A DNA stretch of 64,000 bases from Candidatus Aminicenantes bacterium (GTDB lineage Bacteria; Acidobacteriota; Aminicenantia; Aminicenantales; Aminicenantaceae). Position numbers and translations under genes: made by a program. Of the stretch, positions 31,949 to 51,723 are shown piece after piece; position 1 is the first letter of the stretch, and the number at the start of each line of letters is the position of its first letter. The stretch covers positions 2,693 to 66,692 of the forward strand of contig DRHQ01000056.1 in assembly GCA_011049545.1 (NCBI GenBank). Direction: 5' to 3'. The notes beneath the pieces are model-generated. The model searched no databases and was not told where the DNA came from. It worked only from the letters and a program-made list of their open reading frames with translations.

Positions 31949-31983
31949 CTCGGGACGACTTAGTAGTTATAGGAGGTAGTTAT

Positions 31984-35353: not shown

Positions 35354-35742
35354 AATAGTGAAAAAACACCCGATAAAAAACAGTGTGTTCTGGATGACGC
35401 TGTCTGTACATCCCTGCCATGGAAGGGAGGATGATTCACAAAATGGACCAGGTACAAAAAAGAGCCTCAAAGACCCTTTAAGCCTTGGAAATCTTAACCA
35501 TAAGCCAGGCAATTTTTGTAAGGATGTAATCAGATGTTGACGACGGAAGGTCAATTCTGACAACAAAAGATTTCGGAAAATAACTTTCCCCATATGAGTT
35601 CCTTGACTCTCATCATGGATTGAGTATATATAAAAAGGCGGCGACTGCTTTATTATTTTTTTCCTATGAGACCAAAGAAGACTTTGTTAGGGAAATGTCT
35701 GGAATTTATGATTTCCAAATTTCAAGCCTCAGGGGTTTTTAG

Positions 35743-37080
35743 ATGAGCACCAGTGACACACAGCACCACCCGAGGCGCGTACTAAGCAGCAGATTCACAT
35801 TGGCGGTCATCGTCGGTGGCATCATTGGGCTGGGTATCTTACGCACGCCCGGGGAAGTTGCAGCGGTTGTTCCCGATCCTTTGATGTTTGTGTCCCTCTG
35901 GGTATTGGGCGGCCTGTTCATACTATTGAGCGCGGCAGTGGTAGCCGAACTGGTGGGTATGACGCCGCGATCTGGGGGGGCCTACCCCCTGGTGCGGCGT
36001 GCCTACGGGCCGTTCCCTGGTTTCGTCATTGGCTGGGTCGACTGGTTGACCTTTGTCGCTGACATAGCCTTCAAGGCAGTCGTGGTCACTGAATTTGCCG
36101 CATTGTTAATTCCAGCAGCGGGTCAATGGAAAACACCACTGGCAATCATGGTGTCCTCGGTGTTCGCGGCGCTGCAATTACGGAGCGTTGCCCTGAGCGC
36201 GAAAATCCAGCAGATCGCTGCTGCCGCCTTGGCACTGATCGTTGTCGGCTTCACACTGGCGCTGGTATTCGCAGAGTCGGCGGTGAGCAGTGGTACGGCT
36301 TTGGTTCCCCATGCGGCTAACGGACTCGGTGCCTGGAGCCTCGTCATCGCATCCATCATTTATACTTACGACGGCTGGTATTATGCTGCCTATTTCAGCG
36401 GTGAAATCAAAGGCGGCGGTGGAGCTGTGGCGCGCGCCTGTATCAAGGGTACGATCATTGTCATTGTGCTCTATGTATTCCTGGCTGCGGCGTTGGCCTG
36501 GAAGGTACCTCTGGCCAGCCTGGCTGGCAACGAACTGGCATTGGCCGGCGCCCTGGAGATGGTCATCTCCCCGCTCGCGTCAACCATCGTACTGGTGGCG
36601 GCAATAATCATGTTGCTGGCCTACCAGAACCTGCTGTACATGGCCACGCCCCGAATTATCCAGGCACTGGCGGTCGATGGCCTGTTCGTCAGGCGCGCAG
36701 GGGAAATCTCAAAAGGTGGCAATCCGATCTTTGCGGTGCTGCTGTCCTGGGGGCTTTCGGTCGGCCTGATCATAATCGGTGGATTCCATTTCCTGCTGCA
36801 CCTTTCCGTATTTTTTTACCTGTTCTTATATGTATTGCTGATCGCGGGAGTCATCATCCTGCGTTCGCGCCAGCCGGACACTGACCGCCCGTACCGGGCC
36901 TGGGGTTACCCCTGGAGCACATATACATGTCTTTTCGGTTGGATACTTATCGCCCTGTTCCAGGTAGGTGTCGAAATAGACACCGCCGCTTACGCCGCGA
37001 TTTTTGTGGCGATATCCTGGCCGGTGTACCGGGTCCTGATGCGATCTGGTCGAACTATAAAATTAAACCATAAGGAGTGA
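35743..37080 (+). CDS. APC-family amino acid/polyamine permease (copy 2)
   Basis: Close paralogue of 30632-31948 with long identical nucleotide tracts. Confidence 0.9.
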   Translation: MSTSDTQHHPRRVLSSRFTLAVIVGGIIGLGILRTPGEVAAVVPDPLMFVSLWVLGGLFILLSAAVVAELVGMTPRSGGAYPLVRRAYGPFPGFVIGWVDWLTFVADIAFKAVVVTEFAALLIPAAGQWKTPLAIMVSSVFAALQLRSVALSAKIQQIAAAALALIVVGFTLALVFAESAVSSGTALVPHAANGLGAWSLVIASIIYTYDGWYYAAYFSGEIKGGGGAVARACIKGTIIVIVLYVFLAAALAWKVPLASLAGNELALAGALEMVISPLASTIVLVAAIIMLLAYQNLLYMATPRIIQALAVDGLFVRRAGEISKGGNPIFAVLLSWGLSVGLIIIGGFHFLLHLSVFFYLFLYVLLIAGVIILRSRQPDTDRPYRAWGYPWSTYTCLFGWILIALFQVGVEIDTAAYAAIFVAISWPVYRVLMRSGRTIKLNHKE

Positions 37081-39164
37081 TCATGGCACGAAACCCATAC
37101 TTTGATATTCTATTTGAACCGGTAAGAATTGGTCCGGTTACGACTAAAAACAGGTTTTACCAGGTACCTCACTGTTCCGGTATGGGATATAAAATGCCCA
37201 ATACACTTGCTGGCATGCGGGGAATGAAGGCAGAAGGCGGATGGGGCGTGGTCCATACCGAATACTGCTCCATTCATCCAACATCAGATGATACGCCGTA
37301 CCCTCATGGAAGAATCTGGGATGATGCAGATATTGCTGCGCACGCCTTGATGGTTGAAAAAGTACACGAACACGGGGCGCTGGCAGGAATTCAATTGTGG
37401 CATGGTGGCGCTTCGGTTGCCAATTTGCATTCACGTGAAGCCCCTATGGGCGCAGAGAGCGGACGTGCTGTATATAATGATCCTGTTCAAAGTCGGATTG
37501 TTAATAAATCTGATATTAAAGAGATCCGGAGATGGCATGTGGCAGCGGCCAGACGAGCCAAAGCGGCTGGTTTTGATATCATTTGTGTATATGCAACGCA
37601 TGACTTTCTGATTCAAAGCTTCTTATCCTCTAAGAGGAACTTTCGGTCAGATGAGTATGGCGGATCAGTTGAAAACAGGGTGCGCTTGCTCCGAGAGTTG
37701 ATTGAAGAGGCCAAAAATGCGGTTGGTGACACATGTGCAGTTGTTGTGCGCTTTTGTGCCGATGACGGTTATGCCAGGGCTAATGCAATACGTGATGGGA
37801 GCGTGCCACAGGTCGAGGAACAGAAGGAGATGCTGAGTATTTTGGCAGAGTTGCCGGATCTTTGGGATCTGACAGTGAGTGACTATTCCTTAGAAATGGG
37901 AGCTTCCCGTTTTGTTAAGGAAGCTTCACTTGAAAATTATGTTTCATATGTCAAATCCATTACTTCAAAACCTGTTGTGTGTGTCGGACGGTTTACATCA
38001 CCGAATACAATGGTGGCACAGGTGAAAAGCGGTATCGTGGACCTGATCGGTGCTGCACGTCCATCCATTGCCGACCCGTTTCTGCCCAACAAAATCAATG
38101 AGGGACGGGAGGATGAAATCAGGGAATGTATCGGGTGTAATATCTGTTATGCACATGATAATCGCGGTGCACCCATTCGATGTACACAAAATCCGACAAT
38201 GGGTGAAGAGTGGCGCCGGGACTGGCATCCTGAAAAAATAGGCCCAAAAAAATCAGATGACGAGATTTTGATTGTAGGTGCCGGACCTGCCGGTATGGAA
38301 GCGGCTGTTTCATTGGGAAAACGCGGGTATCATGTTTACCTGGCGGAGGCGAGGCGCGAACTGGGCGGCCGGGTTTCGACAGAATCAATGCTGCCGACAC
38401 TCAGTGAATGGAACAGGGTATATGAATATCGAATAGTGCAGCTTGAGAAACTAAATAATGTTGAGGTGTATCGTGAAAGCAAGACAACCGTAGATGACAT
38501 TCTGGAAATGGGTTCGCCACATGTTGTTATTGCAACCGGAGCCTCATGGCGCAAGGATGGTTTCGGTTTATATAATAGCCGGCCCATATATCCGCCACTA
38601 TCAAGTAACGGGATTTATACGCCCGATGATATTATTGATGGTCATTATCCGGCCGGCAGCGTGATGATTTTTGATGACGATCATTATTACATGGGAAGTG
38701 TGATAGCTGAAAAACTGATAGAACAGGGATGCCGGGTTGATTTTGTATCAACAAACAGTAATGCTGCAGCATGGACACGGCATACAGTCGAACAAGAGAG
38801 AATTCAGGCAAGATTGATTAATCTGGGTATTAACATCATTCCATCACGAAACCTTAAGGCATTTGATGGAAACAGAGTTACCCTTGAATGTGTTTACACT
38901 GGGAGTGAAGAAGAAATGCAGGTTGACGGCCTTGTCATGATTACGGCACGGGTTCCGAACGATGACTTGTATTATGAATTGGAATCTCAGGCCGATGCAT
39001 TATCTGCTGCCGGTATTAAATCGTTAGTCCGCATAGGTGATTGTCTTGCACCGGGCACAATTGCCAGCGCAGTTTTTTCCGGACATAAATTTGCCCGTGA
39101 GTTTGATGAACCTGATCCGGGAGATGTTCCTTTTAAGAGTGAGAGAAATGTTCTTGGACTTTAA
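37077..39164 (+). CDS. Trimethylamine/histamine dehydrogenase family iron-sulfur flavoprotein
   Basis: NRFYQVPHC (6-S-cysteinyl-FMN Cys), KAEGGW, ARPSIADP, CIGCNIC..CTQN, GEEWRRDWHPE, GAGPAG. Confidence 0.9.
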   Translation: MIMARNPYFDILFEPVRIGPVTTKNRFYQVPHCSGMGYKMPNTLAGMRGMKAEGGWGVVHTEYCSIHPTSDDTPYPHGRIWDDADIAAHALMVEKVHEHGALAGIQLWHGGASVANLHSREAPMGAESGRAVYNDPVQSRIVNKSDIKEIRRWHVAAARRAKAAGFDIICVYATHDFLIQSFLSSKRNFRSDEYGGSVENRVRLLRELIEEAKNAVGDTCAVVVRFCADDGYARANAIRDGSVPQVEEQKEMLSILAELPDLWDLTVSDYSLEMGASRFVKEASLENYVSYVKSITSKPVVCVGRFTSPNTMVAQVKSGIVDLIGAARPSIADPFLPNKINEGREDEIRECIGCNICYAHDNRGAPIRCTQNPTMGEEWRRDWHPEKIGPKKSDDEILIVGAGPAGMEAAVSLGKRGYHVYLAEARRELGGRVSTESMLPTLSEWNRVYEYRIVQLEKLNNVEVYRESKTTVDDILEMGSPHVVIATGASWRKDGFGLYNSRPIYPPLSSNGIYTPDDIIDGHYPAGSVMIFDDDHYYMGSVIAEKLIEQGCRVDFVSTNSNAAAWTRHTVEQERIQARLINLGINIIPSRNLKAFDGNRVTLECVYTGSEEEMQVDGLVMITARVPNDDLYYELESQADALSAAGIKSLVRIGDCLAPGTIASAVFSGHKFAREFDEPDPGDVPFKSERNVLGL

Positions 39165-39433
39165 CATAGGAAAGAAAGATGACATGATCCCTACTGCGAT
39201 GTTCCTTTCTTATTTGGATGGGCGCGCTCCATGCCAATAGGCGGCCGAGCTTACAGCTCCAAAAAAACCATTCGATCGTCGGAAATCATGCCCTACGGAA
39301 CCGCAATATTCAACCAACAATTTATAATCGCAGAATGAACTCGCAATTAATAGTTGACAAACATTCAAAACAACAACACAATTTATCCGACACGCGAATC
39401 TGTTGAATTTCATATTTTACTTTTGATATTTAA

Positions 39434-42298
39434 ATGAGAGGTATTGTTATGAAAACAAGTGCGATACATTTGCGATCAAAACACCAGAGTCGCCGCTCTT
39501 CAGCGACCGAAATTCTGGCAATGAGTTTGAGCTTTATTCTGTTGTGCGGATGTGGAGCGTTAAGCGCCGCGGAGGCTGAAGAAAGACCTCAATCCCTCAT
39601 TCCCTTTGTGGATCCAGCGACAATAAACCCAAAGATCCCCCCGCCGTCTTCCATCATCGGGTATGAAGTGGGTGAGAAGGCTGTTCGATACGATCCGCTG
39701 ATGCGTTATCTCGAGGTGTTGGCGGCTTCCTCGGACCGCATCACAATGAATCCCTTTGGCAAGTCCCACGAGGGTCGAACGCTGGTCCACTTGATCATTA
39801 CCAGCCCCAAAAACCACCAGCGCCTGGAGCAAATCAAAGCCGGCAACGCAAAACTCGCCGACCCGCGAAAACTCCCAAATCCCGGGGCCGGGAAAAAACT
39901 CCTCCAGAGCCATCCGGCAACGGCGATCATGACATACAGCATCCACGGCGACGAACTTTCCAGCACCGACGCGGCCATGCAACTTGCCTATCAGCTCGTG
40001 GCCGGAACCGACGACCGAACGAAATCCCTCCTGGATCAAGTCGTTACCATCATCGATCCCCTACAGAACCCCGACGGACACGAGCGCCATTTGGCCTCCA
40101 TCGAACAGCGCACCGGGGTGATTTCCAGCCCCGACGGCCAACACATACAGCACAATGCCATAAACGGCAGAACCAATCACTATCGATTCGACATGAATCG
40201 CGATATGGCATCTCTAGTGACCCTCGAGAATCAAGCCCGCATGAAAGTCATCACCGAGTGGAAGCCCCATTTCATGGTCGACTCCCACGAGATGGGTTCG
40301 CTGGAAACCTACCTGATGGATCCCCCGCGCCAACCCCTGAACCCCCTGTTTCCAAAGAAAAACTTATACTGGCGAGAACAATTCGGTTTCGACCAGGCCG
40401 CCACCTTCGACGCCCACGGCTGGAGCTATTATGCCAAGGATTGGAACACAGAATTTGCGCCAATTTACAACGCCTCCTGGATCAACTACAGCGGCGGCGC
40501 CGGGCTTCTCTACGAGCAAGCCGGTGTCTCCAGCGCGGCGTACAAGCAGGAAACCGGACACATCTTAACTTATCGCGAAGCCGTTCATCACCAGCTCGTC
40601 AGTTCGCTGGCCAACCTCAACACTTTGAAAAACAATCGCCAAGAAATACTCGCTGACTACCTCGCGGACCACATCGAAGCCGTCAACGGCGACGGCGCCC
40701 TGACAGGGACATTCCTCATGCCTCCCCACCCCGACCGAGCCCGCGTTGCTCGCTTCATCGAACTCCTGGGCCGCCAATCCGTGGAATACAGTTTCACCCG
40801 GGAATCCGCTCACATTAAAAACGCCACCGACCTCTTTGGAAACAAAACCGACCATCTGGAACTCCCCGCCGGCACCCTGGTTGTAAAGTCCGACCAGCCG
40901 TTTCGACGCGTGGCTCACGTGCTCTTACGCTTCGACATACGCCCAGACAGCAAATATCTGAAGATCGAACGAGAAGAATTGGAGAACCATCGAGGCTCGC
41001 GGTTTTACGACGTCACAGCCTGGAACCTCCCCATGGCATTCGGCCTGGAGTCCTATTGGGTCGATAAAATCCCGGATCTCAAACTCGATTCGAAACCGCC
41101 GCAGCCCGCGGAGAAAACCCTCGATTGGCCAAGCAAACCCAAATACGGTTACATCATCGAGTTTTCAAGCGCGGTGATTTACGACGTCATGGTTCGACTC
41201 TTCGAGCAGAACTGCCATTTGCGCGCGGCCACAAAACCCTTCGTTTTCCAGGGCCACAACTACCGCCCCGGAGCCATCGTCCTGCGCGGCCACGAGAATC
41301 CCGAAAATCTCGGCGATATCTTGCAAAAAATCGCCCGCAACTTCGACGTCAACATCCGCCCGGCGCAAACGGCATCGGTCGGAAAAGTAGGTCCGGACCT
41401 CGGAGGCCCCAAGTTCGTTCTCTTACACGCCCCGCGTGTCGCCATCATGGCCGGCAACATGTCAAACTCGGCCGGAGCCGTATGGCACCTCTTGGACTAC
41501 CGCCTCAAGATGCGCGTCTCTCCCATCGAAAGAAGTAGAGATCTACGCAAGTACAACGTATTGATACTCCCCGGTGGCGGTCCCGTTTCAGACGGCGTCA
41601 AAAAATGGGTCGAGGACGGCGGCACATTAATCGCCCTCGGCCAAGCCGCATACTCGATAGCAAGAAAAGACAGTAAATTCTCGTCCGTCAGAAGGCGGCG
41701 GGACGTACTTGACAAGCTGGACGTCTATCAGGAAGACCTTGATAGAGAACAACAAGCCGACAACATCAAAATCGACTTTAAAGACCTCTGGGGCGATGGG
41801 AAAGCAAAAAAAGGCCGGAAGAAGAATGCCAGCCAAAAGGAAACCATGGACAAGGAAGAAAAATCGAAAAGATCGCCCTCCTCAGGCAAGCTTGAGAAAC
41901 TCAAACGCATCGACGAATGGCAGAGAATCTTCATCCCATCCGGCGTCTTCGTCAAAGCCTGTCTTGACCAGCGGCACTGGCTTGGTTCCGGACTCGGCAA
42001 GTTCTTGCCCGTCATGGTCAGAGGCGGCAGCGTAATGATGTCAAAGCACCCGATCCAGACGCCGGTCCGGCTCGTCGACGAGGATGACTTGCGCCTGAGC
42101 GGTCTGCTGTGGCCGGAAGCTAGAAAACGGCTCGCCAATTCGTCCTTGGCGACTGTCGAACGCCATGGCCGCGGACAGGTGATACTTTTCGCTTCAAATC
42201 CAACGTATCGTGGCTGGTATCCGGCAATGGAAAGGCTGTTTTTGAATGCTGTTTTTCTGGGTCCGGGCATGGGTACAAACCAGAAAATGCCTTGGTAG
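39434..42298 (+). CDS. Secreted M14-family zinc carboxypeptidase-like protein
   Basis: Signal peptide; IHGDE, QNPDG, FDMNRD, DSHEM; C-terminal GATase-like domain; GC-richer than neighbours. Confidence 0.85.
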   Translation: MRGIVMKTSAIHLRSKHQSRRSSATEILAMSLSFILLCGCGALSAAEAEERPQSLIPFVDPATINPKIPPPSSIIGYEVGEKAVRYDPLMRYLEVLAASSDRITMNPFGKSHEGRTLVHLIITSPKNHQRLEQIKAGNAKLADPRKLPNPGAGKKLLQSHPATAIMTYSIHGDELSSTDAAMQLAYQLVAGTDDRTKSLLDQVVTIIDPLQNPDGHERHLASIEQRTGVISSPDGQHIQHNAINGRTNHYRFDMNRDMASLVTLENQARMKVITEWKPHFMVDSHEMGSLETYLMDPPRQPLNPLFPKKNLYWREQFGFDQAATFDAHGWSYYAKDWNTEFAPIYNASWINYSGGAGLLYEQAGVSSAAYKQETGHILTYREAVHHQLVSSLANLNTLKNNRQEILADYLADHIEAVNGDGALTGTFLMPPHPDRARVARFIELLGRQSVEYSFTRESAHIKNATDLFGNKTDHLELPAGTLVVKSDQPFRRVAHVLLRFDIRPDSKYLKIEREELENHRGSRFYDVTAWNLPMAFGLESYWVDKIPDLKLDSKPPQPAEKTLDWPSKPKYGYIIEFSSAVIYDVMVRLFEQNCHLRAATKPFVFQGHNYRPGAIVLRGHENPENLGDILQKIARNFDVNIRPAQTASVGKVGPDLGGPKFVLLHAPRVAIMAGNMSNSAGAVWHLLDYRLKMRVSPIERSRDLRKYNVLILPGGGPVSDGVKKWVEDGGTLIALGQAAYSIARKDSKFSSVRRRRDVLDKLDVYQEDLDREQQADNIKIDFKDLWGDGKAKKGRKKNASQKETMDKEEKSKRSPSSGKLEKLKRIDEWQRIFIPSGVFVKACLDQRHWLGSGLGKFLPVMVRGGSVMMSKHPIQTPVRLVDEDDLRLSGLLWPEARKRLANSSLATVERHGRGQVILFASNPTYRGWYPAMERLFLNAVFLGPGMGTNQKMPW

Positions 42299-42663
42299 CG
42301 CAGGCCGGATGAGAATCATCTCTTTTATCGAAGAACCGAAGAAAATCGACAGGATCATCCGCCATCTCAAGCTCAGCTCCCAGGCCGAACAGCCACCCCC
42401 ACCTCGTGTTGTCCAACAGGAACTTCTGATGGCAGTTGAGGAGAAGGGGGAGTATTTTTGAGAGCCTCTGTGGCTGCTTCTTGTTGATTCGAGGGTGAAG
42501 TCTATCTGAAACCTGATGTTTTGGAGGCACTGGTTGATCTGCTATGCTTTTTGAGCCGTTGACCTTGCCGTTTTGGATGTGATATTGTTATTTTAGGATG
42601 TTAATGGGTTGTAAATGGGGAAAATTGTAATCGATGGGGGTGAAATCGCCTGAAAGAGAAATT
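42299..42663 (+). mobile_element. IS91-like element 3' end remnant (copy E)
   Basis: MRIISFIEEPKKIDRIIRHLKL..PPPPRVVQQELLMAVEEKGEYF-stop plus non-coding tail homologous to copy D. Confidence 0.75.
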
Positions 42664-44163
42664 ATGAATCATACAGAAAACGATAAGATACGATCGGCTG
42701 TTTCGAGACTTGATTTTCGAACACAGGCCTTTATTGATGGAAAATTTGTTGATGTGGCTTGCGGCAAATCATTTGTTACGGAAAATCCTGCCACAGGTAA
42801 ACCTCTGGCCGAGATAGCAGCATGTGACAAGGAAGATATAGATCGGGCTGTTGAAGCTGCACGCAGTGCTTTTGAAAAAGGCAGCTGGTCTAAAATGTCT
42901 CCGGATGATCGCAAAAAAGTCTTACTCAAATTTGCCGACCTTCTTGAAACTCATACCGATGAATTAGCCTTGCTGGACTGCCTGGAAGCAGGTAAACCCA
43001 TTCAAGATTGCAGCACTTTTGATATTCCGGAAACAGTGAAATGTATCCGATGGCATGCTGAGGCCATAGATAAGCTTTATGATCATGTATCGACAACAAG
43101 TTCTGATAACTTAGGACTGATCCTTCGTGAGCCTATTGGAGTCGTAGGTGCGGTTATTCCCTGGAACTTCCCTGCTTTAATGGCGGCTTGGAAGATCGGG
43201 CCAGCCCTTGCTGCCGGAAACAGCGTTCTGTTAAAACCTTCAGAGCTGACATCTCTCAGCGCATTGCGAATGGGAGAATTAGCCGGAGAAGCCGGAGTGC
43301 CACAGGGAGTTTTTAATGTGTTGCCAGGTCTTGGTGAAACCGCCGGGCAAGCGATTGGATTGCACATGGATATTGACATGGTTGCTTTTACGGGTTCTAC
43401 GGAAGTGGGGCGTCTGTGTTTGAGTTACGCAGCAAAGTCCAATTTAAAAAGAATTATTCTTGAATGTGGTGGGAAGAGTCCGCAGGTAGTTATGGCTGAT
43501 GCACCAGAAATCGATAGGATTGCTGTAAATGTTCTGAACAGTGCATTCTGGAACATGGGGGAAAACTGCAGTTGCGGATCTCGACTAATAATTCATGAAT
43601 CTCTTAAGGATCCCTTACTGGATCGGCTTATTGAGCTCTGCAAGGAGTGGCCCGTTGGAGATCCCTTGAATCCTGAAACCAGGGTCGGGTCAATGATTGG
43701 AAAGGCTCATATGGAAAAAGTACTTGGATACATCGAGGCGGGAAATTCAGAGGGCGCGCAGTTGGTACTGGGAGGCCGGCGCGTACTTGAAGAGACAGGC
43801 GGATATTTTATTGAACCGACGATTTTTGACAAGGTTAGCAATGACATGAAAATTGCTCGCGAGGAAATCTTTGGCCCGGTATTATCCGTTATTACTTTTA
43901 CCAGCGAAGAGCAGGCAATCTCCATTGCAAATGACACAAACTATGGTCTCGCCGCCTCTGTTTATACACAAGATGTGAATGCTGTTCATCGTATCAGCCG
44001 CGCATTGAAAGCCGGAACAGTTTCCGTTAACTGCTTCTCTGAGGGGGATATGACAACGCCCTTTGGAGGATTTAAAGAGTCGGGCTTTTTTGGGCGTGAC
44101 AAGTCGATTTGGGCTCATGAGCAATATACCCAGCTCAAAACGGTTTGGATGCAGCTTGACTGA
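42664..44163 (+). CDS. Aldehyde dehydrogenase (PuuC-like)
   Basis: PWNFP, FTGST, LECGGKSP, GENCSCG, EEIFGP, PFGGFKESG. Confidence 0.9.
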   Translation: MNHTENDKIRSAVSRLDFRTQAFIDGKFVDVACGKSFVTENPATGKPLAEIAACDKEDIDRAVEAARSAFEKGSWSKMSPDDRKKVLLKFADLLETHTDELALLDCLEAGKPIQDCSTFDIPETVKCIRWHAEAIDKLYDHVSTTSSDNLGLILREPIGVVGAVIPWNFPALMAAWKIGPALAAGNSVLLKPSELTSLSALRMGELAGEAGVPQGVFNVLPGLGETAGQAIGLHMDIDMVAFTGSTEVGRLCLSYAAKSNLKRIILECGGKSPQVVMADAPEIDRIAVNVLNSAFWNMGENCSCGSRLIIHESLKDPLLDRLIELCKEWPVGDPLNPETRVGSMIGKAHMEKVLGYIEAGNSEGAQLVLGGRRVLEETGGYFIEPTIFDKVSNDMKIAREEIFGPVLSVITFTSEEQAISIANDTNYGLAASVYTQDVNAVHRISRALKAGTVSVNCFSEGDMTTPFGGFKESGFFGRDKSIWAHEQYTQLKTVWMQLD

Positions 44164-44314
44164 TAAGGTCCAAATCGCTGATTTACTTTATTTTCAAAAG
44201 TAATAAAATCGGAGCACAGAAACGTTGCAAGTGTTCATTTCGTTGTTTAGGAGATTCTAAAGGGATTAAGATATGAATATTAAAAAAAAGAACGGTTTAA
44301 AAGGAATATTTGCT

Positions 44315-44974
44315 ATGAAAAAAGAGGAAATATTAAAAAATCTGTTCGATGCCGTTGTAGAGATGAATGTACAAAAAGGTAAAGATGCTGCCACGCTACT
44401 TATTAAAGAAAATTGTAATCCTTTGGAGGGTATCGAGGACGGTTTGTTAAAGGGGATGAAAGTTACAGGAGAGAAATTTAATAAACTTGAAATATATTTA
44501 CCAGAACTTATGATGGCTGCAAGAGTATTCAATTCAGCAATGACTATCTTAAAACCTCATATTTCAGCGGACAGCAAAAGTACCCAAAAAGGTACCGTGC
44601 TAATTGGCACAGTTAAAGGTGACATACACCAAATCGGCAAAGATCTTGTTGCTATGTTGTTAGAAACAGGGGGGTTTGATGTCCACAATATCGGTGAAGA
44701 TGTATCCACTTCTACTTTTATAGAGGAAGCTGGTAGAGTTGATGCTGATATTATAGCCTTATCATCGCTCTTGACTACTACTATGGCATCCCAGAAAGAT
44801 CTCATCGACATTCTAAAAGAAACAGGTCAAAGAGAAAAATATTTAGTTATGATAGGCGGAGCCCCAACTTCGCAAAAATGGGCTGATGATATTGGAGCTG
44901 ATATATATGGAGAAAACGCTGAAAGAGCAGTTTCACTTGCTTTAGAATTTATGTCAAAAAAACAAAAATCATAA
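44315..44974 (+). CDS. Methyltransferase cognate corrinoid protein (MtmC/MttC-like)
   Basis: GTVKGDIHQIGK (DxHxxG), SSLLTTT, MIGGAP; N-terminal cap domain. Confidence 0.92.
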   Translation: MKKEEILKNLFDAVVEMNVQKGKDAATLLIKENCNPLEGIEDGLLKGMKVTGEKFNKLEIYLPELMMAARVFNSAMTILKPHISADSKSTQKGTVLIGTVKGDIHQIGKDLVAMLLETGGFDVHNIGEDVSTSTFIEEAGRVDADIIALSSLLTTTMASQKDLIDILKETGQREKYLVMIGGAPTSQKWADDIGADIYGENAERAVSLALEFMSKKQKS

Positions 44975-44984
44975 GAAGGTAAAA

Positions 44985-46358
44985 ATGGTAAATCTTATAG
45001 AAATCATAGATAGGGCATTGGAAGGACCCTACACTCCTGAAAAAGACTTTGATTTAAATATCTTTGTTCCAAAGCTAAGGGAAGCAATAAAAAAATATGA
45101 AATTAAGTATGACCCTGAAAATCCTTTGTCCTGTGATGACGATTTGGCAGATCGTGTTTTTAAGGCAGGAATAGAGTTATTTGCCGATGTAGGAATATAC
45201 TGTGTCGATACAGAACGTATAATAAAATTTACCGGGGAAGAAATTCTGGAAAGTTTGGCCGAAGCTCCTAGCTGCCCGGTATTTGGCGAAGGAAGTGATG
45301 CCAAGGCTCTGGTAGCTCGTAAGCCCGAAAGCGATATTGCTCCGTGGTGCTTTCTAGGAGCAGGTGGAGCAGCCGTGTCCAATGAAACGCTTTTTGAAAG
45401 TATTTTAGAGGCCTATGCGTTATTTCTTCCTTTGGCCAATTCCATCACCACTCCGTCAATTAAGCATATTGAAGGAAGACTTGTTCGTACTAAAACTCCT
45501 TTGGAAATCCTTGCCTGCATGCGATCCAGTACTTTAGCCAGGGAAGCTTTGCGAAAAGGTGGCCGTGCGGGTCTGCCTATTATGAATTCAATAGCTTCTG
45601 CAGTTTCGGATACAGCTAAAATTGCAGGAAGTCAATTTGGCCTTAGGCCAACTGATGGTTGGCTGATCGGTACTATGGCGGAGATGAAGATTAATTTTGA
45701 GAGATTAAATGAGATTACTTATGTTATGAATTTAGGAGGTAATATAGTTGCCGAAAGCGCACCCATTTTAGGTGGTTATTGTGGCGGGCCGGAAGGAACT
45801 GCTGTAACCAATGTTGCTTACCACCTTAATTCTATACTCTTAATGAAAGGTTCTTGCCAACTCACATTTCCAATTCATGTCCATCATGGATGCACAAGTG
45901 TTAGGGATATTTTATGGGCCAATAGCGTTAGTGCACAGGCTATTAGCAGAAACAGCCATTTCCCCTTCTTTATTCTTAATTATGTGGCGGCCGGTCCGAT
46001 GACGGAAATGTGCCTATATGAAATCGCAGCGACTGTGATAAACGCTGTTGTTTCCGGAGCATCTATAGAATTTGGAGGTGTTGCAAAGGCCGTTGAAGTT
46101 GACCATTTCACGCCGATGGAACCAAAATGGGCTTCGGAAATAGCGCATGGCGTAATCGGGATGACTCGTTCACAAGGAAATGAGATTGTTAAAAAATTGT
46201 TGGCAAAATATGAAGATAATATTCCAAATGTGCCAAAAGGCAAAACCTATGAACAGTGTTGGGATATGAAAACAAAACAGCCGATTCGGGAATATAAACA
46301 ATTATATCAAAAAATCAAAGCGGAATTAGCTGAATTAGGTGTCCGATTCAAGTTTTAA
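44985..46358 (+). CDS. mtmB: Monomethylamine:corrinoid methyltransferase (MtmB) homologue, pyrrolysine-free
   Basis: DDDLADRVFKAG, YCVDTERIIKFT, PILGGYCGGPEG, AGPMTEMCL, PKGKTYEQCWD match the archaeal MtmB pattern as recalled; no amber codon. Confidence 0.85.
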   Translation: MVNLIEIIDRALEGPYTPEKDFDLNIFVPKLREAIKKYEIKYDPENPLSCDDDLADRVFKAGIELFADVGIYCVDTERIIKFTGEEILESLAEAPSCPVFGEGSDAKALVARKPESDIAPWCFLGAGGAAVSNETLFESILEAYALFLPLANSITTPSIKHIEGRLVRTKTPLEILACMRSSTLAREALRKGGRAGLPIMNSIASAVSDTAKIAGSQFGLRPTDGWLIGTMAEMKINFERLNEITYVMNLGGNIVAESAPILGGYCGGPEGTAVTNVAYHLNSILLMKGSCQLTFPIHVHHGCTSVRDILWANSVSAQAISRNSHFPFFILNYVAAGPMTEMCLYEIAATVINAVVSGASIEFGGVAKAVEVDHFTPMEPKWASEIAHGVIGMTRSQGNEIVKKLLAKYEDNIPNVPKGKTYEQCWDMKTKQPIREYKQLYQKIKAELAELGVRFKF

Positions 46359-46401
46359 ACAATCTGTTAGGTGCGCACATTTATAGAAGAAGGAGATTAT
46401 T

Positions 46402-47880
46402 GTGAGTATAAAAATTGTCAAGAATTATGTTAACGGTCAATGGCGAGAAGCAGAAAACACCGGCTACTTAGATGTGGAAAACCCAAGTACCGGTGAAATT
46501 CTTGCTAAAACGCCTTTATCAAGCCAGGCGGAAGTAAACCAGGCAATAGATGCCGCATACGAAGCTTACAAAAGCTGGAAGAACCTTCCGGTTGCACGTC
46601 GTGTTCAGCCTTTATATAAACTTGTTGATTTACTTCGTCAAAATGAAGACAAGATTGCTCGGCTGCTGGTTTCCGAAATGGGCAAATCAATTCCTGATGC
46701 TATAGCTGAAATGAAACGTATATTCGAAAATATTGAAGTTGCCTGCGGAATGCCGGTTCTTCAACAGGGAGACAAGCTCATTGGTGCTTCATTCGGAATT
46801 GACGGCGAAGTAATCCGTCTTCCTTTAGGCGTTTTTGCAATGGTAGCGCCCTTTAATTTTCCAGCTATGGTGCCTTTCTGGTTTTTGCCATATGCATTAG
46901 CAACGGGCAATACCTATATCGTAAAAGCCTCTGAACAAGTGCCGTTAACCATGCAATTGATAACCGAATATATTGACCAGTGTGACTTTCCGCCCGGAGT
47001 GTTTAACCTTGTTAATGGTGACAAGATTGCAGTTGATACATTTATGGAAAGTCCCAAGGTAAAGGGCGTATCTTTGGTAGGCTCAAGTAATACATGTAAA
47101 ATTATTGCCGAAAAATGTGCTAAGGCTAATAAGCGTTTCCAGGCAATGGGATCAGCCAAAAATCATCTCGTTGCTATGCCCGATGCCAAAATGGATGATA
47201 TGATTCGTAACATGATTAGTTCCTGTTACGGCTGTGCAGGCCAGAGATGTATGGCTTCTTCTGCTATTGTTGCCGTTGGCGATAATATGTACAAAAAGGT
47301 CTGCGAAAAGTTTGTCAAAGGCTCAAAAGAGGTTATCGTAGCCAATCCTCTTGATCCCAAAGTAGCTGATGAGCAAATGGTCATGGGGCCGGTCATTTCT
47401 GCCAAGAGTAAGAAGTTCATCCTGGAGATGATTGAAAAAGGCATAAAAGAAGGCGCTACTCTTGCTTTAGATGGTCGTGATTTGGTAATATCCGGTTGTG
47501 AAAAAGGTCATTTTGTCGGACCGACAGTCTTTACTGATGTAAAACCCGGCATGGATATTCATAACACCGAGATATTTGGCCCTGTAGTTGTGATACTCAA
47601 AGCCGATACTATTGATGAAGCGATCAATATAATAAATGAACATCAATATGGTAACGGTGCTTCCATCTATACCCAGAACGGATATTGGGCGAGAAAGTTT
47701 AAGCTTGATACAGAATGCGGCATGATAGGTATTAACGTCGGCATTCCCGCCCCTGTCTCATATCTACCTTTCGGTGGCATGAAAAAATCACAATATTCCG
47801 ACATTAAAGCCCAAGGCAAAGCTGTAATTAATTTCTTCACTGAAGATAAAATCATTACCGAAAGATACTGGCCGGAGTAA
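46402..47880 (+). CDS. mmsA: CoA-acylating (methyl)malonate-semialdehyde dehydrogenase
   Basis: PFNFPAMVPFW, VGS, AKNH, GCAGQRCMA, EIFGPV, YGNGASI, GINVGIPAP. Confidence 0.9.
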   Translation: MSIKIVKNYVNGQWREAENTGYLDVENPSTGEILAKTPLSSQAEVNQAIDAAYEAYKSWKNLPVARRVQPLYKLVDLLRQNEDKIARLLVSEMGKSIPDAIAEMKRIFENIEVACGMPVLQQGDKLIGASFGIDGEVIRLPLGVFAMVAPFNFPAMVPFWFLPYALATGNTYIVKASEQVPLTMQLITEYIDQCDFPPGVFNLVNGDKIAVDTFMESPKVKGVSLVGSSNTCKIIAEKCAKANKRFQAMGSAKNHLVAMPDAKMDDMIRNMISSCYGCAGQRCMASSAIVAVGDNMYKKVCEKFVKGSKEVIVANPLDPKVADEQMVMGPVISAKSKKFILEMIEKGIKEGATLALDGRDLVISGCEKGHFVGPTVFTDVKPGMDIHNTEIFGPVVVILKADTIDEAINIINEHQYGNGASIYTQNGYWARKFKLDTECGMIGINVGIPAPVSYLPFGGMKKSQYSDIKAQGKAVINFFTEDKIITERYWPE

Positions 47881-47907
47881 AAATATTTGAAAGGAGATGA
47901 AGATAGT

Positions 47908-49188
47908 ATGAATGCCAAACAATTATATGATGAATATATGATTACGAGTATGGTGGCTGGTTTTGAGCCGGTTACTGTAGAGCAGGCGTCAGGTTGTGTT
48001 ATCATTGACACAGAGGGCAGGGAGTATTTGGATTGTTTCAGCGGGATAGCTGTTTGTAATGCCGGCCACGGCCATCCAAAAATAGTTGACGCTGCTCACC
48101 GGCAGCTAGACAAGCTGATACATTGCTGCACATACGTTTATTACAATCCCCGTGCCGCTGAGCTGGCTCGAAAATTGGCCCAAATAACTCCGGGCGCTTT
48201 ACAAAAAAGTTTTTTTGGCAATAGCGGTGCAGAGGCGCTTGAAGGCGCTATGCGGTTAGCCAAGCAATTTACTAATCGTACAGAACTTGTTTGCTTGACA
48301 ATGAGTTTCCATGGACGAACGGTAGGAACATTGTCTATCACTGGAGACTACAGTCGAAAAAAAGGAACTGGGCCTTATCTATCAGGAATTGCCTTTGCGC
48401 CTGCACCATATTGCTATCGTTGCCCATTTAAGTTGGAATATCCACAATGCGGCGTTGCCTGTGCTGAGTTTCTTGAGCATGTCTTTCGTTATCAAACTGC
48501 TGGAGGCGTGGCGGCTTTCATTGCTGAACCGGTATTGGGAGAAGGCGGTATCATAATACCACCACCTGAATATTTCAAAAAAGCAATGGAAATAGTTAGG
48601 GATAACGGGGCACTTTTTATTGCAGATGAAGTGCAAAGTGGGTTTGGTCGTACCGGGAAATTGTTTGCTATCGAACATTATGATGTCGAACCTGATATTA
48701 TGTGTATGGCTAAAGGTATTGCCAATGGTTTTCCGCTCGGCGCATTTATTGCTCGTCCAGATATAGCTGAAGCTTTTAATCCTGGTGATCATTTATCAAC
48801 TTTTGGCGGAAATCCTGTTAGTTGTGCAGCTGCAATGGCCAATATTGATGTTATGTCAGATGAAAGACTACCACGGAACGCAACGGTTCGGGGGGATGAA
48901 CTGATGAACAGCCTTATTGAGTTTAAGGAAAAGTATTCTTTGGTGGGTGATGTGCGAGGTAAGGGGTTAATGATCGGTATCGAACTGATTAAAGATAAAA
49001 ACAAGACTCCTGCGTCTGAGGAGGCCAAACAGATTCGCAAGCTTTGTCGTGAAGCTGGTGTTCTTATCGGAGTAGGAGGGGTGTTTGGAAATGTTCTGCG
49101 TCTTCAGCCACCTCTTGTTTTAACCGCAGAAGAAGGCCAGAGAGTTTTAGATGTGCTTGAGAAATCACTCTGCCCGATGTCAGATTAA
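47908..49188 (+). CDS. Class III PLP aminotransferase (GabT/omega-amino acid type)
   Basis: NSGAEA, SFHGRT, FIADEVQSGFGRTG, MAKGIANG, STFGGNP; AAAGGAG RBS. Confidence 0.9.
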   Translation: MNAKQLYDEYMITSMVAGFEPVTVEQASGCVIIDTEGREYLDCFSGIAVCNAGHGHPKIVDAAHRQLDKLIHCCTYVYYNPRAAELARKLAQITPGALQKSFFGNSGAEALEGAMRLAKQFTNRTELVCLTMSFHGRTVGTLSITGDYSRKKGTGPYLSGIAFAPAPYCYRCPFKLEYPQCGVACAEFLEHVFRYQTAGGVAAFIAEPVLGEGGIIIPPPEYFKKAMEIVRDNGALFIADEVQSGFGRTGKLFAIEHYDVEPDIMCMAKGIANGFPLGAFIARPDIAEAFNPGDHLSTFGGNPVSCAAAMANIDVMSDERLPRNATVRGDELMNSLIEFKEKYSLVGDVRGKGLMIGIELIKDKNKTPASEEAKQIRKLCREAGVLIGVGGVFGNVLRLQPPLVLTAEEGQRVLDVLEKSLCPMSD

Positions 49189-49261
49189 GCGATTAATTAA
49201 CCATTGTTTTAGGGAAAGGATTCCCAGAGAGTGAAATACATATTTATTTGGAGACACAAAA

Positions 49262-50692
49262 ATGGCCAAGGCAAAGACAGTTTTCTTAAACCAACAAGAG
49301 ATGGATCTGATTCATGCTCAAAGTATAAAAAGCCTGCAGGAAATTGGCATAAAAGTTCACAGCAAGCCCGTTCTTGAAATACTTGAGAAGAACGGAGCGA
49401 GTGTGGATTACAAGGCGATGGTTGCTAAAATTCCTGAAAAGATGGTTAACCAGGCTCTTGAAAGCGTTCAAAAGGAATTTACACTATGCGCCCGCGATCC
49501 AAAGCGTGATCTGAAGGTTCCTACAAAAACATATCCGTGGATGACTACCAGCGGACTTGCAGTTTTTGTTAATGATTATAACACTGGAGAGTATCGTGAT
49601 TCCACCAGAAAGGATATTGCTGCGTTTACAAGACTTGGAGATGCCGTTGATTCAGCTGATTTTCTCTGGACGGCATTAACCGCAAGAGATGTAACACCTC
49701 TTGCCCATGGCCCCCATGAATTATGGGTGACCATGCAAAATACGACCAAGCATGTTCAGGGTGTTACAGTGCAAAGTGCTGAAGATGCAAAAGTGCAGAT
49801 TGAGCTGGCAGCTCTTATAGCAGGAGGAAAAGAAGAATTAAAAAAACGTCCTCTCTTTTCTGTAATTGCATGCCCGATCGCACCATTGACCTATGAGCAA
49901 GGCTCCATTGAGGCGCAGGTCGAACTGGCAAAAGCCGGAATACCGGTTGCTTCCATGTCCATGTCAAATGGTGGTGTATCTTCTCCTCTTCCAGTGGCGG
50001 GAATATTGGTAAATGCTAACACGGAAAATCTGGGAGGTATTGTAATCTCACAAATGGCAGCACCTGGTGCACCCCACATTTATTGTTCCGAGTCAGCGCC
50101 AATGGATATGACAACAGGCAGCATGAACTATAATTCAGTTGATAAGAGTTTTCTAAGCATCGGGCTGGCACAAATGGCAAAAAGATACAGTCTGCCATCT
50201 CTTGTTGCTGATGCCGGATGGGGTGACCAGACAGAAGCCTGCGTTTCCGGAGTGTTGACGCCTGTTACTCAACTTACAGGAATAATGGGAGGATCAGACC
50301 TTGTTACCGGTTTGGGGAGTATTGATTCTGCTAAAGGAATCTCTTTTGAACAGTTTATTGTTGATTCATATATGTGGGATTGCTGCAAGAACTATCTGCA
50401 TGAAGTGGAAATATCGGAAGAGAAGATAGGTTTGGATGCTGTTAAAGAAGTTGGGCATGGCCATGATTTCCTGACGCATCCTCACACTCTGAAATATCTT
50501 AGAGGCGAGCTCACATTCTGGGATAGAGAAAAACTTGACCTGCTGGAGATGGACGATAAAGAAGTGCCTGCAGAAGCTAACAGAATAGTGAAGAGCATAT
50601 TGGATAAGCATCAGGTTGAGCCGCTTGCAAATGACCTCATTGAAAAGGGCGATTCAATTATTGCGAAGTATGAAGATATAGTGGGTAATTAA
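49262..50692 (+). CDS. MttB superfamily methyltransferase, pyrrolysine-free (second copy)
   Basis: IHAQSIKSLQEIGI, TTKHV, CPIAPL, AQMAKRYSLP, SFEQFIVD, VGHGHDFL; no in-frame stop. Confidence 0.9.
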   Translation: MAKAKTVFLNQQEMDLIHAQSIKSLQEIGIKVHSKPVLEILEKNGASVDYKAMVAKIPEKMVNQALESVQKEFTLCARDPKRDLKVPTKTYPWMTTSGLAVFVNDYNTGEYRDSTRKDIAAFTRLGDAVDSADFLWTALTARDVTPLAHGPHELWVTMQNTTKHVQGVTVQSAEDAKVQIELAALIAGGKEELKKRPLFSVIACPIAPLTYEQGSIEAQVELAKAGIPVASMSMSNGGVSSPLPVAGILVNANTENLGGIVISQMAAPGAPHIYCSESAPMDMTTGSMNYNSVDKSFLSIGLAQMAKRYSLPSLVADAGWGDQTEACVSGVLTPVTQLTGIMGGSDLVTGLGSIDSAKGISFEQFIVDSYMWDCCKNYLHEVEISEEKIGLDAVKEVGHGHDFLTHPHTLKYLRGELTFWDREKLDLLEMDDKEVPAEANRIVKSILDKHQVEPLANDLIEKGDSIIAKYEDIVGN

Positions 50693-50886
50693 GATATTTG
50701 AACTGAAGTGTAATAGCTACTCAAACCAGCGGCCTGGTGTGACCTGACCCCTACTATTCGTTCTACAAAATCTGACGGCAATATAAATTCTCAGGCAGGA
50801 TTATTGCTATGTAATATGAACATTGATAGGATATTGCATCGTTATCTAATCGGGAACCCTCGGCCTTTTCCATTGGAGTGTCAATA

Positions 50887-51378
50887 ATGAAAATCGAAAC
50901 GCAAATTACCAAATTTGACCAAAGCATCGAAGATTTTGTACATTGTGTGGCTTCTCTAAATGAAGAGTTATTCCTCAAGAGACTTAATCATTGGTCTCCA
51001 AGAGACGTCGTGGCTCATTTGATTGGCTGGAACCGCTACATCATAGAAGGGAGCAATCAAATAAGGAGAGGAGAACTTCCTTTTTATGACATTGATCCCG
51101 GAGAGGATTATAGCAAGGTGAATGCTGTGCTTGTCCTGGAATACTCATCCACGGACAGACAAGAAATGCTTGATGAACTCCAGGTCACAGCTCAAGAGTT
51201 GATGCGATTCATACGATCACTTGATTCCAGTGAATGGAGTCGGGATTATGGTGTGAGGCACAAAGGAGCTATCATAACTATTCAAAATACTGTCGATGAA
51301 TTTATTGAGGATTACGACATACATAAAGAGCGGATCAAGGAATGGGTAAGAAGAGAAAGCAGTCGAAGACAGGACTAA
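50887..51378 (+). CDS. DinB/ClbS-like four-helix bundle protein
   Basis: WSPRDVVAHLIGWN and C-terminal DYxxH. Confidence 0.7.
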   Translation: MKIETQITKFDQSIEDFVHCVASLNEELFLKRLNHWSPRDVVAHLIGWNRYIIEGSNQIRRGELPFYDIDPGEDYSKVNAVLVLEYSSTDRQEMLDELQVTAQELMRFIRSLDSSEWSRDYGVRHKGAIITIQNTVDEFIEDYDIHKERIKEWVRRESSRRQD

Positions 51379-51447
51379 TAAGTCCTCACAGTTCAATTAG
51401 TCGTTAATCTTCTGTCTTATAAGCAGTTCTTTCAGACATCAGATGAC

Positions 51448-51480
51448 CTGGGCCCAATTTGGGCGCAGTTTTGGGTACAC
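51448..51480. repeat. Three imperfect TTTGGGC-type repeats, putative arm-type sites
   Basis: CTGGGCCCAA / TTTGGGCGCAG / TTTGGGTACAC about 50 bp from the tRNA 3' end. Confidence 0.55.
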
Positions 51481-51528
51481 CTTACATTTTAGAAGGGCGA
51501 AAAATTGTGGAAGTTATTGAAAACAATA

Positions 51529-51603
51529 TGGTGGGCGATGCAGGATTTGAACCTGCGACTTCTTCCGTGTGAAGGAAGCGCTCTACCCCTGAGCTAATCG
51601 CCC
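51529..51603 (-). tRNA. tRNA-Val(CAC)
   Basis: GGGCGATTAGCTCAGGGGTAGAGCGCTTCCTTCACACGGAAGAAGTCGCAGGTTCAAATCCTGCATCGCCCACCA: full cloverleaf, anticodon CAC, encoded CCA. Confidence 0.97.
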
Positions 51604-51610
51604 GCATCTA

Positions 51611-51639
51611 TTTTTATTCAATTTACTCTTTGTTGTCAA
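51611..51639 (-). promoter_or_regulatory. Promoter for tRNA-Val
   Basis: Minus strand TTGACA-17 nt-TAAAAA just upstream of the tRNA. Confidence 0.55.
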
Positions 51640-51687
51640 TTTTTCCTTTTTCTTAGCCTGAAACAAGTAAATTCCGAATAACTTGGA

Positions 51688-51716
51688 TTGACAAGATTTC
51701 ATTTTAATTTTATAAA
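51688..51716 (+). promoter_or_regulatory. sigma70-like promoter, divergent from the tRNA
   Basis: TTGACA-17 nt-TATAAA. Confidence 0.65.
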
Positions 51717-51723
51717 TATGGTA

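Follow-up and report, generated by a model that had tools for sequence, protein, structure and literature searches.

A conserved locus of a Candidatus Aminicenantes bacterium places pyrrolysine-free MtmB- and MttB-family methyltransferases beside a putative beta-alanine-type end-route

We describe a gene locus in a Candidatus Aminicenantes bacterium in which a methyltransferase of the MtmB family, lacking pyrrolysine (Pyl), is encoded in one run with a corrinoid protein (CorP), a CoA-acylating (methyl)malonate-semialdehyde dehydrogenase (MMSDH), a class III aminotransferase (AT3) and a homologue of the methyltransferase MttB. The locus lies in a stretch of 64,000 nucleotides (assembly GCA_011049545.1, contig DRHQ01000056.1, positions 2,693 to 66,692 of the forward strand), referred to below as the window, whose numbering is used throughout. 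The host assembly (G000) comprises 161 contigs and 3.24 Mb and is 89.7% complete, a scope that applies to every search of that genome reported here. The locus is real and conserved, and it is probably expressed. We see an even chance that it constitutes a modular, oxygen-independent catabolic locus for an N-methylated amine with a putative beta-alanine-type end-route. It would then represent a known kind of system, the corrinoid-dependent methylated-amine methyltransferase, in a new configuration, from which complete demethylation independent of pyrrolysine is predicted; what it adds is an MMSDH end, a second, MttB-type enzyme and a head of amine and aldehyde dehydrogenases. The genes are as follows:

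35743..37080, + strand: APC-family permease (Perm_b), candidate importer (PF13520, E 5.3e-44)
37077..39164, + strand: iron-sulfur flavoprotein amine dehydrogenase of the histamine/trimethylamine dehydrogenase family (3K30, E 1e-213)
39434..42298, + strand: 954-aa protein with a partial M14 carboxypeptidase domain, GC-rich (PF00246, E 9.7e-15)
42634..44163, + strand: KauB/PauC/PuuC-type (amino)aldehyde dehydrogenase, ALDH1 (PF00171, E 5.3e-169)
44273..44974, + strand: cognate corrinoid (cobalamin-binding) protein, CorP (PF02310 and PF02607)
44985..46358, + strand: pyrrolysine-free MtmB-family methyltransferase, MT1 (PF05369, E 4e-98)
46402..47880, + strand: CoA-acylating MMSDH (TIGR01722, 492.9 bits)
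47887..49188, + strand: GabT-like class III aminotransferase, AT3 (PF00202, E 3.3e-119)
49262..50692, + strand: pyrrolysine-free MttB-superfamily methyltransferase, MT1 (PF06253, E 6.7e-62)

The first-pass annotation of this DNA had described the last five of these genes as one run. All five are present on the + strand at the coordinates above, and their Pfam and NCBIfam families agree with the names it gave them; the start that it used for CorP, 44315, is an alternative inner ATG. The spacers along the CorP, MtmB, MMSDH, aminotransferase and MttB genes measure 10, 43, 6 and 73 nt. Left out of that frame were the upstream permease, amine dehydrogenase and KauB-type aldehyde dehydrogenase, the end of the permease gene overlapping the start of the amine dehydrogenase gene by 4 nt. 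Promoter and terminator scans of 35000-54000 revealed no clear unit boundaries and nothing convincing in the intergenic gaps, with 44 promoter-like sites (28.0 expected) and 28 terminator-like sites (20.7 expected).

The MtmB homologue is a full-length member of its family, the PF05369 match spanning positions 2-449 of 450. In the HMMER alignment to Methanosarcina barkeri MtmB (1L2Q, E 1.7e-66), the pyrrolysine 'X' falls opposite Met200 within GRAGLPIMN, encoded by the ATG at 45582 (ctg cct att ATG aat), exactly where it had been placed by eye; the gene contains neither an amber codon nor any other in-frame stop. Methionine occupies this column in 136 of 177 aligned homologues. An AlphaFold model built from 17 homologues (pLDDT 87.3, pTM 0.90) superimposes on the archaeal MtmB structures 1NTH, 1L2Q and 1TV2 with a TM-score of 0.91 and a root-mean-square deviation of 2.5 A over 455 columns, and on the MttB and MtgB structures with a TM-score of about 0.5. 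The protein shares with M. barkeri MtmB/MtmC (1L2Q, 1NTH; 30-31% identity) the full-length fold and an adjacent corrinoid protein, whereas it has Met200 in place of pyrrolysine and belongs to a bacterium, not a methanogen, in which no Pyl machinery was found: tRNA(CUA) is not among the 51 tRNAs detected by aragorn, and PylD and PylS have no match above cut-off in the assembly. The genome carries three MtmB homologues in all, together with eight full and two partial MttB homologues, none of which has an in-frame stop. The same aragorn output includes a tRNA-Sec (tca) gene, from which the organism probably uses selenocysteine.

A corrinoid protein with its methyltransferase is a textbook pair, and in most of the 158 related loci introduced below CorP and the MtmB homologue are neighbours. 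CorP itself scores 209.1 bits against TIGR02370, under the cut-off of 215.3, and carries the cobalamin motifs DxHxxG (DIHQIG), SxL (SSL) and GG.

The dehydrogenase and aminotransferase that follow were assigned in the same manner. MMSDH scores 492.9 bits against TIGR01722, over the cut-off of 448.5, and matches solved MMSDHs over its full length (5TJR, 1.1e-121; 1T90, 8.2e-118). Its 'QRCM' aligns with the catalytic 'ERCM' of 5TJR and 9Q0D, and its 'GSAKNH' with the 'GGAKNH' of solved MMSDHs; the ELGGK glutamate is absent in the CoA-acylating MMSDH class. By these signatures, the product of 46402-47880 is a bona fide MMSDH-family member. The aminotransferase falls under every NCBIfam cut-off, its best PDB match being 7VNO (1.3e-85), and keeps the equivalents of E. 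coli GabT I50, R141, E211, K268 and R398, of which we take R141, E211 and R398 to be recognition residues and the lysine to bind pyridoxal phosphate. The same residues are kept in 56-58% identical homologues beside the MtmB genes of three related loci (L151, L125, L079), and are missing from the aminotransferases of two others (L109, L132). Judged on this pattern, AT3 is a 2-oxoglutarate-type omega-aminotransferase. Its PDB neighbours were rejected as a guide to substrate: enzymes of the gamma-aminobutyrate (GABA), putrescine and ornithine type, racemases and a phospho-lyase all score alike.

A GabT-like aminotransferase followed by an MMSDH makes reasonable an end-route of the kind that had been proposed for this locus, in which beta-alanine or 3-aminoisobutyrate would be transaminated to (methyl)malonate semialdehyde and oxidised to the acyl-CoA. 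In Pseudomonas, polyamine and beta-alanine catabolism uses KauB/PauC, a beta-alanine aminotransferase and an MmsA-type malonate-semialdehyde dehydrogenase, and mammals employ the pair ABAT and ALDH6A1. The window repeats the Pseudomonas combination of aminoaldehyde dehydrogenase, omega-aminotransferase and CoA-acylating MMSDH, which takes aminopropanal through beta-alanine and malonate semialdehyde to acetyl-CoA. It differs in that corrinoid methyltransferase genes are interspersed among these genes and an iron-sulfur flavoprotein amine dehydrogenase stands at their head, and in that its aminotransferase is of the 2-oxoglutarate (GabT) type. The AT3-MMSDH pair also stands alone in two genomes of the same order, G025 and G033 (57-58% and 47% identity), both lacking an MtmB homologue and, for about 7 kb around the pair, any corrinoid methyltransferase. 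Because of this occurrence, the two enzymes appear to be a portable unit working on a primary amine, most simply beta-alanine or 3-aminoisobutyrate, and it is their placement next to MtmB homologues that is informative.

Conservation of this placement was assessed in 158 related loci, 79 from species genomes and 79 from metagenomes, none of them from Methanococcoides or Methanosarcina. Stop-to-stop open reading frames (ORFs) were compared with the window proteins, the best MtmB homologue of each locus served as anchor, and linkage was scored where an MMSDH and/or aminotransferase lay within 6 kb. Many loci are short, and in a few rows there is redundancy, L102 being identical to the window and L111 deriving from the same contig as L004. 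Grouped by MtmB identity to the window, the loci are distributed thus:

At least 85%: 27 loci, 10 with MMSDH and/or aminotransferase
70-85%: 16 loci, 10 with MMSDH and/or aminotransferase
50-70%: 57 loci, 13 linked, almost all to an aminotransferase only
Below 50%: 58 loci, 6 with MMSDH and/or aminotransferase

Where identity is at least 70%, 20 of 43 loci are therefore linked, and the absence of conserved linkage that had been named as grounds for abandoning the idea was not observed. Among the loci of at least 85% identity that extend at least 1.5 kb downstream (n=17), MMSDH is present in 8, the aminotransferase in 8 and the MttB homologue in 13. The pairing recurs in several gene orders:

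MtmB-MMSDH-AT-MttB: window, L083-L086, L096, L098
MtmB-MMSDH(42-43%)-small ORF-AT: L109, L128, L151
AT-MMSDH(39%)-small ORF-CorP-MtmB: L125
CorP-MtmB-MtmB-AT-MMSDH: L132
CorP-MtmB ... AT(56%)-MMSDH(41%)-MttB: L079, a Methanomethylicia archaeon

The MMSDH of these loci is 83-99% identical to that of the window in some cases and 39-47% in others; in L128, AT3 remains 90% identical while the MMSDH is of the diverged 42-43% type. In a FastTree phylogeny of 165 homologues, the window protein sits in a 22-row clade (support 100), and 15 of 19 MMSDH-linked rows fall inside one 40-row set that holds the window. No description of MtmB-aminotransferase-MMSDH coupling was found in the literature; relevant clade lists may exist in supplements, especially that of PMC13044021.

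The genome's two other MtmB homologues (36-39% identical) echo the arrangement. On contig C61 (L164, 7995-14380, minus strand) the order is PAS-LuxR regulator-CorP-MtmB-CorP-MtmB-class I/II aminotransferase, which repeats the MtmB and aminotransferase theme with another aminotransferase class; one of the two MtmB proteins has histidine (GRPTIPIHN) at the pyrrolysine-equivalent position. A similar double pair is found downstream of MtmB-MttB genes in L008, L091 and L126.

Several further features of the relatives were recorded. A conserved ORF of about 150 residues, helical and with no Pfam family, follows the 39-43%-type MMSDH beside MtmB in bacteria and in the archaeon and does not occur in the window (L109 10893-11336; L151 2257-2700; L128 2697-3176; L125 6267-6734; L079 17625-18074; L019 10199-10639). 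In close relatives (L098, L100, L101, L129) the MttB homologue is followed by a glycerate-2-kinase-like protein (DUF4147 and MOFRL) and an enolase, accompanied in L100 and L101 by an aldehyde:ferredoxin oxidoreductase; in L151 the DUF4147 and MOFRL protein and enolase follow the aminotransferase, with a LarA-like protein. This set recalls the conversion of glyceraldehyde through glycerate and 2-phosphoglycerate to phosphoenolpyruvate and may point to a hydroxylated C3 skeleton. In two Dehalococcoidales loci (L109, L019), a TRAP transporter (DctPQM), a saccharopine-dehydrogenase-like protein and a PF01593 flavin amine oxidoreductase lie between two MtmB homologues (63% and 75% identical), with MMSDH and aminotransferase coming after, a gene content with a polyamine or opine flavour.

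The genes upstream of CorP extend the putative route. The amine dehydrogenase (695 aa), although labelled OYE-like by Pfam, is a full-length member of the histamine/trimethylamine dehydrogenase family, matching 3K30 over residues 9-690 and, at 1.4e-207 and 3.6e-159, 6DE6 and the trimethylamine dehydrogenase 1DJN; it keeps the flavin-linking cysteine ('PHC') and the iron-sulfur cysteines (CxxCxxC...C; 'CIGCNIC...C'). Its gene immediately precedes CorP in L126 and is close by in L087 and L101, and in L087 a 93% identical permease copy accompanies it upstream of CorP-MtmB. By analogy with trimethylamine dehydrogenase, it could act as an oxidative N-demethylase. We found nothing relevant in the literature tying histamine or trimethylamine dehydrogenase to anaerobic corrinoid systems. 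The closest solved relatives of ALDH1 are 7UYY (3.5e-185), KauB (6B4R, 9.7e-176) and PuuC (4LIH, 2.2e-168), and its score against the NCBIfam PuuC model is 591.7 bits, under the cut-off of 850. Upstream of CorP, three loci without ALDH1 (L083, L086, L101) have a module of tungsten-type aldehyde:ferredoxin oxidoreductase, ferredoxin and pyridine-nucleotide oxidoreductase. This module is, in all appearance, a functional replacement of ALDH1, and since it takes over where ALDH1 is missing, aldehyde oxidation would belong to the pathway. Between amine dehydrogenase and ALDH1 lies the 954-aa ORF, with a GC content of about 0.55 and negative GC skew; the M14 match is limited to residues 91-257. Copies 95% identical occur upstream in L083 and L085, and M14 and ALDH1 are the variable parts of the locus across relatives. 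Taken together, the upstream genes would complete a route from diamine through aminopropanal, beta-alanine and malonate semialdehyde to acetyl-CoA, and therefore our best guess of the substrate moves toward N-methylated propylamines or diamines.

The MttB homologue narrows the field from the other end. It scores 373.2 bits against TIGR02369, under the cut-off of 525, and its Gly319 sits opposite the pyrrolysine 'X' of 7XCL, as in an MttB fold without pyrrolysine. It matches the Pyl-containing MttB 7XCL at 204 bits and the pyrrolysine-free MtgB 9YCE at 155.9 bits. In its lack of pyrrolysine and its place in a corrinoid operon of an anaerobe, it resembles MtgB, MtcB, MtpB, MtyB and MthB (PMC13080624, PMC12155760, PMC8604678). 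MtgB binds glycine betaine through Y97 and F356 (cation-pi) and through R312 and H348 (carboxylate), and MtcB, MtpB, MthB and MtyB, each of which takes acidic substrates, conserve R312 (PMC13080624). In the alignment to 9YCE, whose chain index equals the published number minus 2 (verified on all four residues), R312 is replaced by L314, H348 by a gap, Y97 by S97 and F356 by alanine. All four glycine-betaine-binding residues are thus missing: the window protein is without the acid-binding arginine reported for the five enzymes (PMC13080624) and without the aromatic pair of MtgB. Because it has no equivalent of R312, beta-alanine betaine is disfavoured, and the protein appears unlikely to take an acidic betaine of this kind; its residues would fit a non-acidic methylated amine. 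A second pyrrolysine-free MttB homologue is encoded at 29183-30619 (PF06253, E 5.3e-70). After it come genes for an APC permease and for a DAO-family FAD oxidoreductase (31816-33396), the latter having no PDB sequence match at E<=1e-10; there is no corrinoid protein near it in the region 29183-33396. Copies of this second MttB and its permease, 96% and 85-91% identical, are found near the MtmB operon in L129, L100, L101 and L126.

Of the genome-wide items suggested along with the original reading, a RamA/RACo-type activase was present and a corrinoid:tetrahydrofolate methyltransferase was not found. The only RACo/RamA-type activase of the genome is that of the acetyl-CoA synthase cluster (L162, contig C112, 409-8695), which reads AcsB-CooC-AcsD-AcsC-RACo and continues with a stand-alone 300-aa PF02574 protein of the homocysteine S-methyltransferase type; this protein, the single PF02574 match of the genome, occupies the place where the pterin-binding AcsE would be expected. 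The sole PF00809 match was rejected as a methyl-corrinoid:acceptor methyltransferase (MT2), as it sits beside ftsH and a cdaA-like gene and is read as FolP. PF01208 (the URO-D family) has no member in the assembly, and ten proteins encoded beside other corrinoid proteins include no MT2 candidate. Directly after corrinoid genes on two contigs lie proteins of 204-227 residues with a weak match to PF02965, the MetH reactivation domain (L166, 4680-5363, contig C51; L167, 5562-6176, contig C54), which are possible candidates for RamA-independent reactivation factors.

Across the window's own genome and 40 relatives, an MtmB homologue (E<=1e-50) is present in 1 of 41, the window's genome only, whereas MttB homologues are present in 39. 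The 90% cluster of the MtmB homologue comprises records labelled Marinimicrobia and Thermodesulfobacteriota, marine-sediment sequences and Tara-source sequences, and the nearest genome locus is that of a Neomarinimicrobiota metagenome-assembled genome (92%). On another contig, the proteins of the acetyl-CoA synthase cluster fall into 90% clusters together with records named Candidatus Aminicenantes. In tetranucleotide use, only one of 73 contigs is more atypical than the contig of the window; both of its ends and the region 45-53 kb are close to the genome (r 0.94-0.96), and 5-45 kb is not. For a NuoF-like gene of the window, the matches in 12 relatives are at 46-57% only. Horizontal acquisition of the locus is the simplest reading, and mis-binning of the contig is unlikely. 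Elsewhere in the window, a long run of + strand genes at 3628-26506, atypical in composition (tetranucleotide r 0.70-0.87), encodes eight PQQ_2/beta-propeller paralogues. Between these lie genes for 4Fe-4S proteins, for a fusion of NuoE-NuoF-like type (13316-15712), for an Fe-S flavoprotein resembling GltD, for a glycosyltransferase and for an ABC/FtsX exporter.

Near-identical DNA occurs in 13 DNA runs, each containing half or more of the sampled words, with the labels marine sediment, sediment, seawater and subsurface metagenome; the source sample may be among them. Six RNA runs hold parts of the locus. Contigs of four metatranscriptomic runs, at 90-99% identity, cover CorP through MttB, with the following numbers of bins covered out of 30:

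X14: 27
X15: 21
X16: 20
X17: 8

A 2330-nt contig of X17 bridges the aminotransferase and MttB genes, and no RNA-library contig lies on ALDH1 (43268-44218).

In the pathway that we favour, the permease would import the methylated compound, and the MtmB-type and MttB-type pyrrolysine-free methyltransferases would transfer the N-methyl groups of this compound to a single, shared corrinoid protein in its Co(I) form. From there they would enter C1 metabolism, the genome having an acetyl-CoA synthase cluster. From a terminal aminopropyl group, the amine dehydrogenase and KauB-type aldehyde dehydrogenase would produce beta-alanine, which the GabT-like aminotransferase would convert to malonate semialdehyde and MMSDH to acetyl-CoA. 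From the gene content we infer an N-methylated C3 amine as the preferred substrate class, that is, N-methylated 1,3-diaminopropane or propylamine units, or N-methyl-beta-alanine. We likewise infer the order of the steps, the sharing of one corrinoid protein and the action of the MtmB homologue on a secondary rather than a quaternary amine. The substrates offered earlier, beta-alanine betaine or N-methylated propylamines, are thus shifted toward the latter: the MttB homologue, without an R312-type arginine, speaks against the betaine, and the upstream genes for the propylamines. Overall, the first interpretation of the locus holds for its linkage, its end-route and the lack of Pyl machinery, and has been revised in its betaine example, its omission of the upstream genes and its view of what substrates were already assigned. 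A bolder version is doubtful: that the MtmB homologue demethylates a secondary N-methyl amine without pyrrolysine, in what would be the first complete anaerobic route from a methylated-polyamine-type compound to methyl-corrinoid and acetyl-CoA. MttB-type and MtmB-type demethylation would be joined there to the amine dehydrogenase, aminoaldehyde oxidation and the conversion of beta-alanine through malonate semialdehyde to acetyl-CoA. The candidates would be N-methyl-beta-alanine or compounds with N-methyl-aminopropyl units, of which the N-methylated long-chain polyamines in diatom silica are an example; we found no literature on the bacterial breakdown of such polyamines.

The statement that no substrate had been assigned to a non-Pyl MtmB is outdated. 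MtqB of Methanococcoides methylutens Q3c (locus tag ACT9XH_RS04775), a non-Pyl MtmB homologue, methylates cobalamin with tetramethylammonium and choline, and most of the 1,061 family members collected in the same study are of unknown function (PMC13044021). A pocket signature of Met, Cys and aromatic residues is conserved in the MtqB clade (PMC13044021). As in the window, this pyrrolysine-free enzyme is encoded beside its own corrinoid protein, MtqC (PMC13044021), and the same mechanism, attack of Co(I) on an N-methyl group, is expected of both. MtqB and MtqC differ in belonging to a methanogen that transfers the methyl group to coenzyme M, with no aminotransferase or MMSDH context, and in using quaternary amines that end as tertiary amines (PMC13044021). 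This precedent favours an alternative in which the locus only harvests methyl groups, quaternary amines being partly demethylated as by MtqB while the aminotransferase and MMSDH form an independent beta-alanine or 3-aminoisobutyrate module in the same island. Also consistent with it are the isolated AT3-MMSDH pairs of G025 and G033, the mosaic composition of the island, the lack of an MtmB homologue in the 40 relatives, and ten close relatives that read CorP-MtmB-MttB without the pair, a form also held by RNA library X14 (joint 46363>49255). Eight of those ten loci, however, keep the first 115-147 nt of the cassette (the spacer and the 5' end of mmsA, at 86-97% identity) and have lost the rest. 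From this, the pair is ancestral to the clade and its absence a secondary loss, these loci being deletion derivatives and not cases in which it had yet to be inserted. The pairing moreover recurs in several orders with non-orthologous MMSDHs, at MtmB identities of 39-100% and in bacteria and archaea, and aminotransferases of two classes follow MtmB homologues in the same genome. We regard a purely methyl-harvesting role as unlikely.

A role in the complete degradation of beta-alanine betaine is less probable again. The betaine would be demethylated three times, MttB taking the first methyl group and MtmB the later ones, before transamination and oxidation of the resulting beta-alanine to acetyl-CoA. 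Such a scheme agrees with the genes present at 44273-50692, a GabT-like aminotransferase with MMSDH is the classical beta-alanine route, a TRAP transporter (organic-anion type) stands beside the 63-75% MtmB homologues of L109 and L019, and the linkage counts are the same as for our favoured pathway. It is the substrate site that disagrees, with leucine for MtgB R312 and the other three glycine-betaine-binding residues (PMC13080624) absent too; the scheme also leaves no role for the upstream amine dehydrogenase and aminoaldehyde dehydrogenase, and the importer of the window is an APC permease and not a betaine-type BCCT or ABC system. The degradation of methylated histidine-derived compounds (anserine-type beta-alanyl-methylhistidine dipeptides or N-methylhistamine) we consider highly improbable. 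M14 would free beta-alanine for the aminotransferase and MMSDH, the methyltransferases would take the ring or side-chain N-methyl group, and the histamine-dehydrogenase-like enzyme with the aldehyde dehydrogenase would handle the histamine part. True histamine dehydrogenases are indeed the best solved relatives of the amine dehydrogenase (3K30, 6DE6), and the M14-domain protein lies between it and ALDH1 and is 95% identical in L083 and L085; the window, however, contains no histidine decarboxylase or hut genes, the M14 match covers a small part of its protein, and M14 and ALDH1 vary across loci.

Several observations also weigh against the favoured pathway itself. The only characterised non-Pyl MtmB homologue, MtqB, acts on quaternary, not secondary, amines (PMC13044021), and no MT2 was found in the assembly. 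The ten pair-less relatives count here as well, and the best aminotransferase match in one pair-less genome (G041, 1.8 Mb) reaches 36% identity. ALDH1 occurs in only 2 related loci, L102 (100%) and L149 (87%), and the stretch of amine dehydrogenase, M14 and ALDH1 is unlike the MtmB operon in composition. The AT3-MMSDH pair, as a general module, could process beta-alanine that comes from elsewhere. DNA may be present among the contigs of RNA libraries, which give no proof of a single transcript and are thus supportive only. Two methyltransferases cannot obviously remove three methyl groups, so that stepwise removal is purely conjectural.

Pyrrolysine is thought to let methanogens activate the methyl group of simple non-quaternary methylamines. 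Of the more than one thousand MtmB homologues without pyrrolysine, a single clade has an assigned function (PMC13044021). Where such homologues of one clade keep occurring with an aminotransferase and a semialdehyde dehydrogenase, a primary amine product is predicted; if this is true, complete N-demethylation would be possible without pyrrolysine. The locus yields a short, concrete list of candidate substrates and suggests that anoxic marine sediments have a sink for methylated nitrogen compounds that has gone unrecognised.

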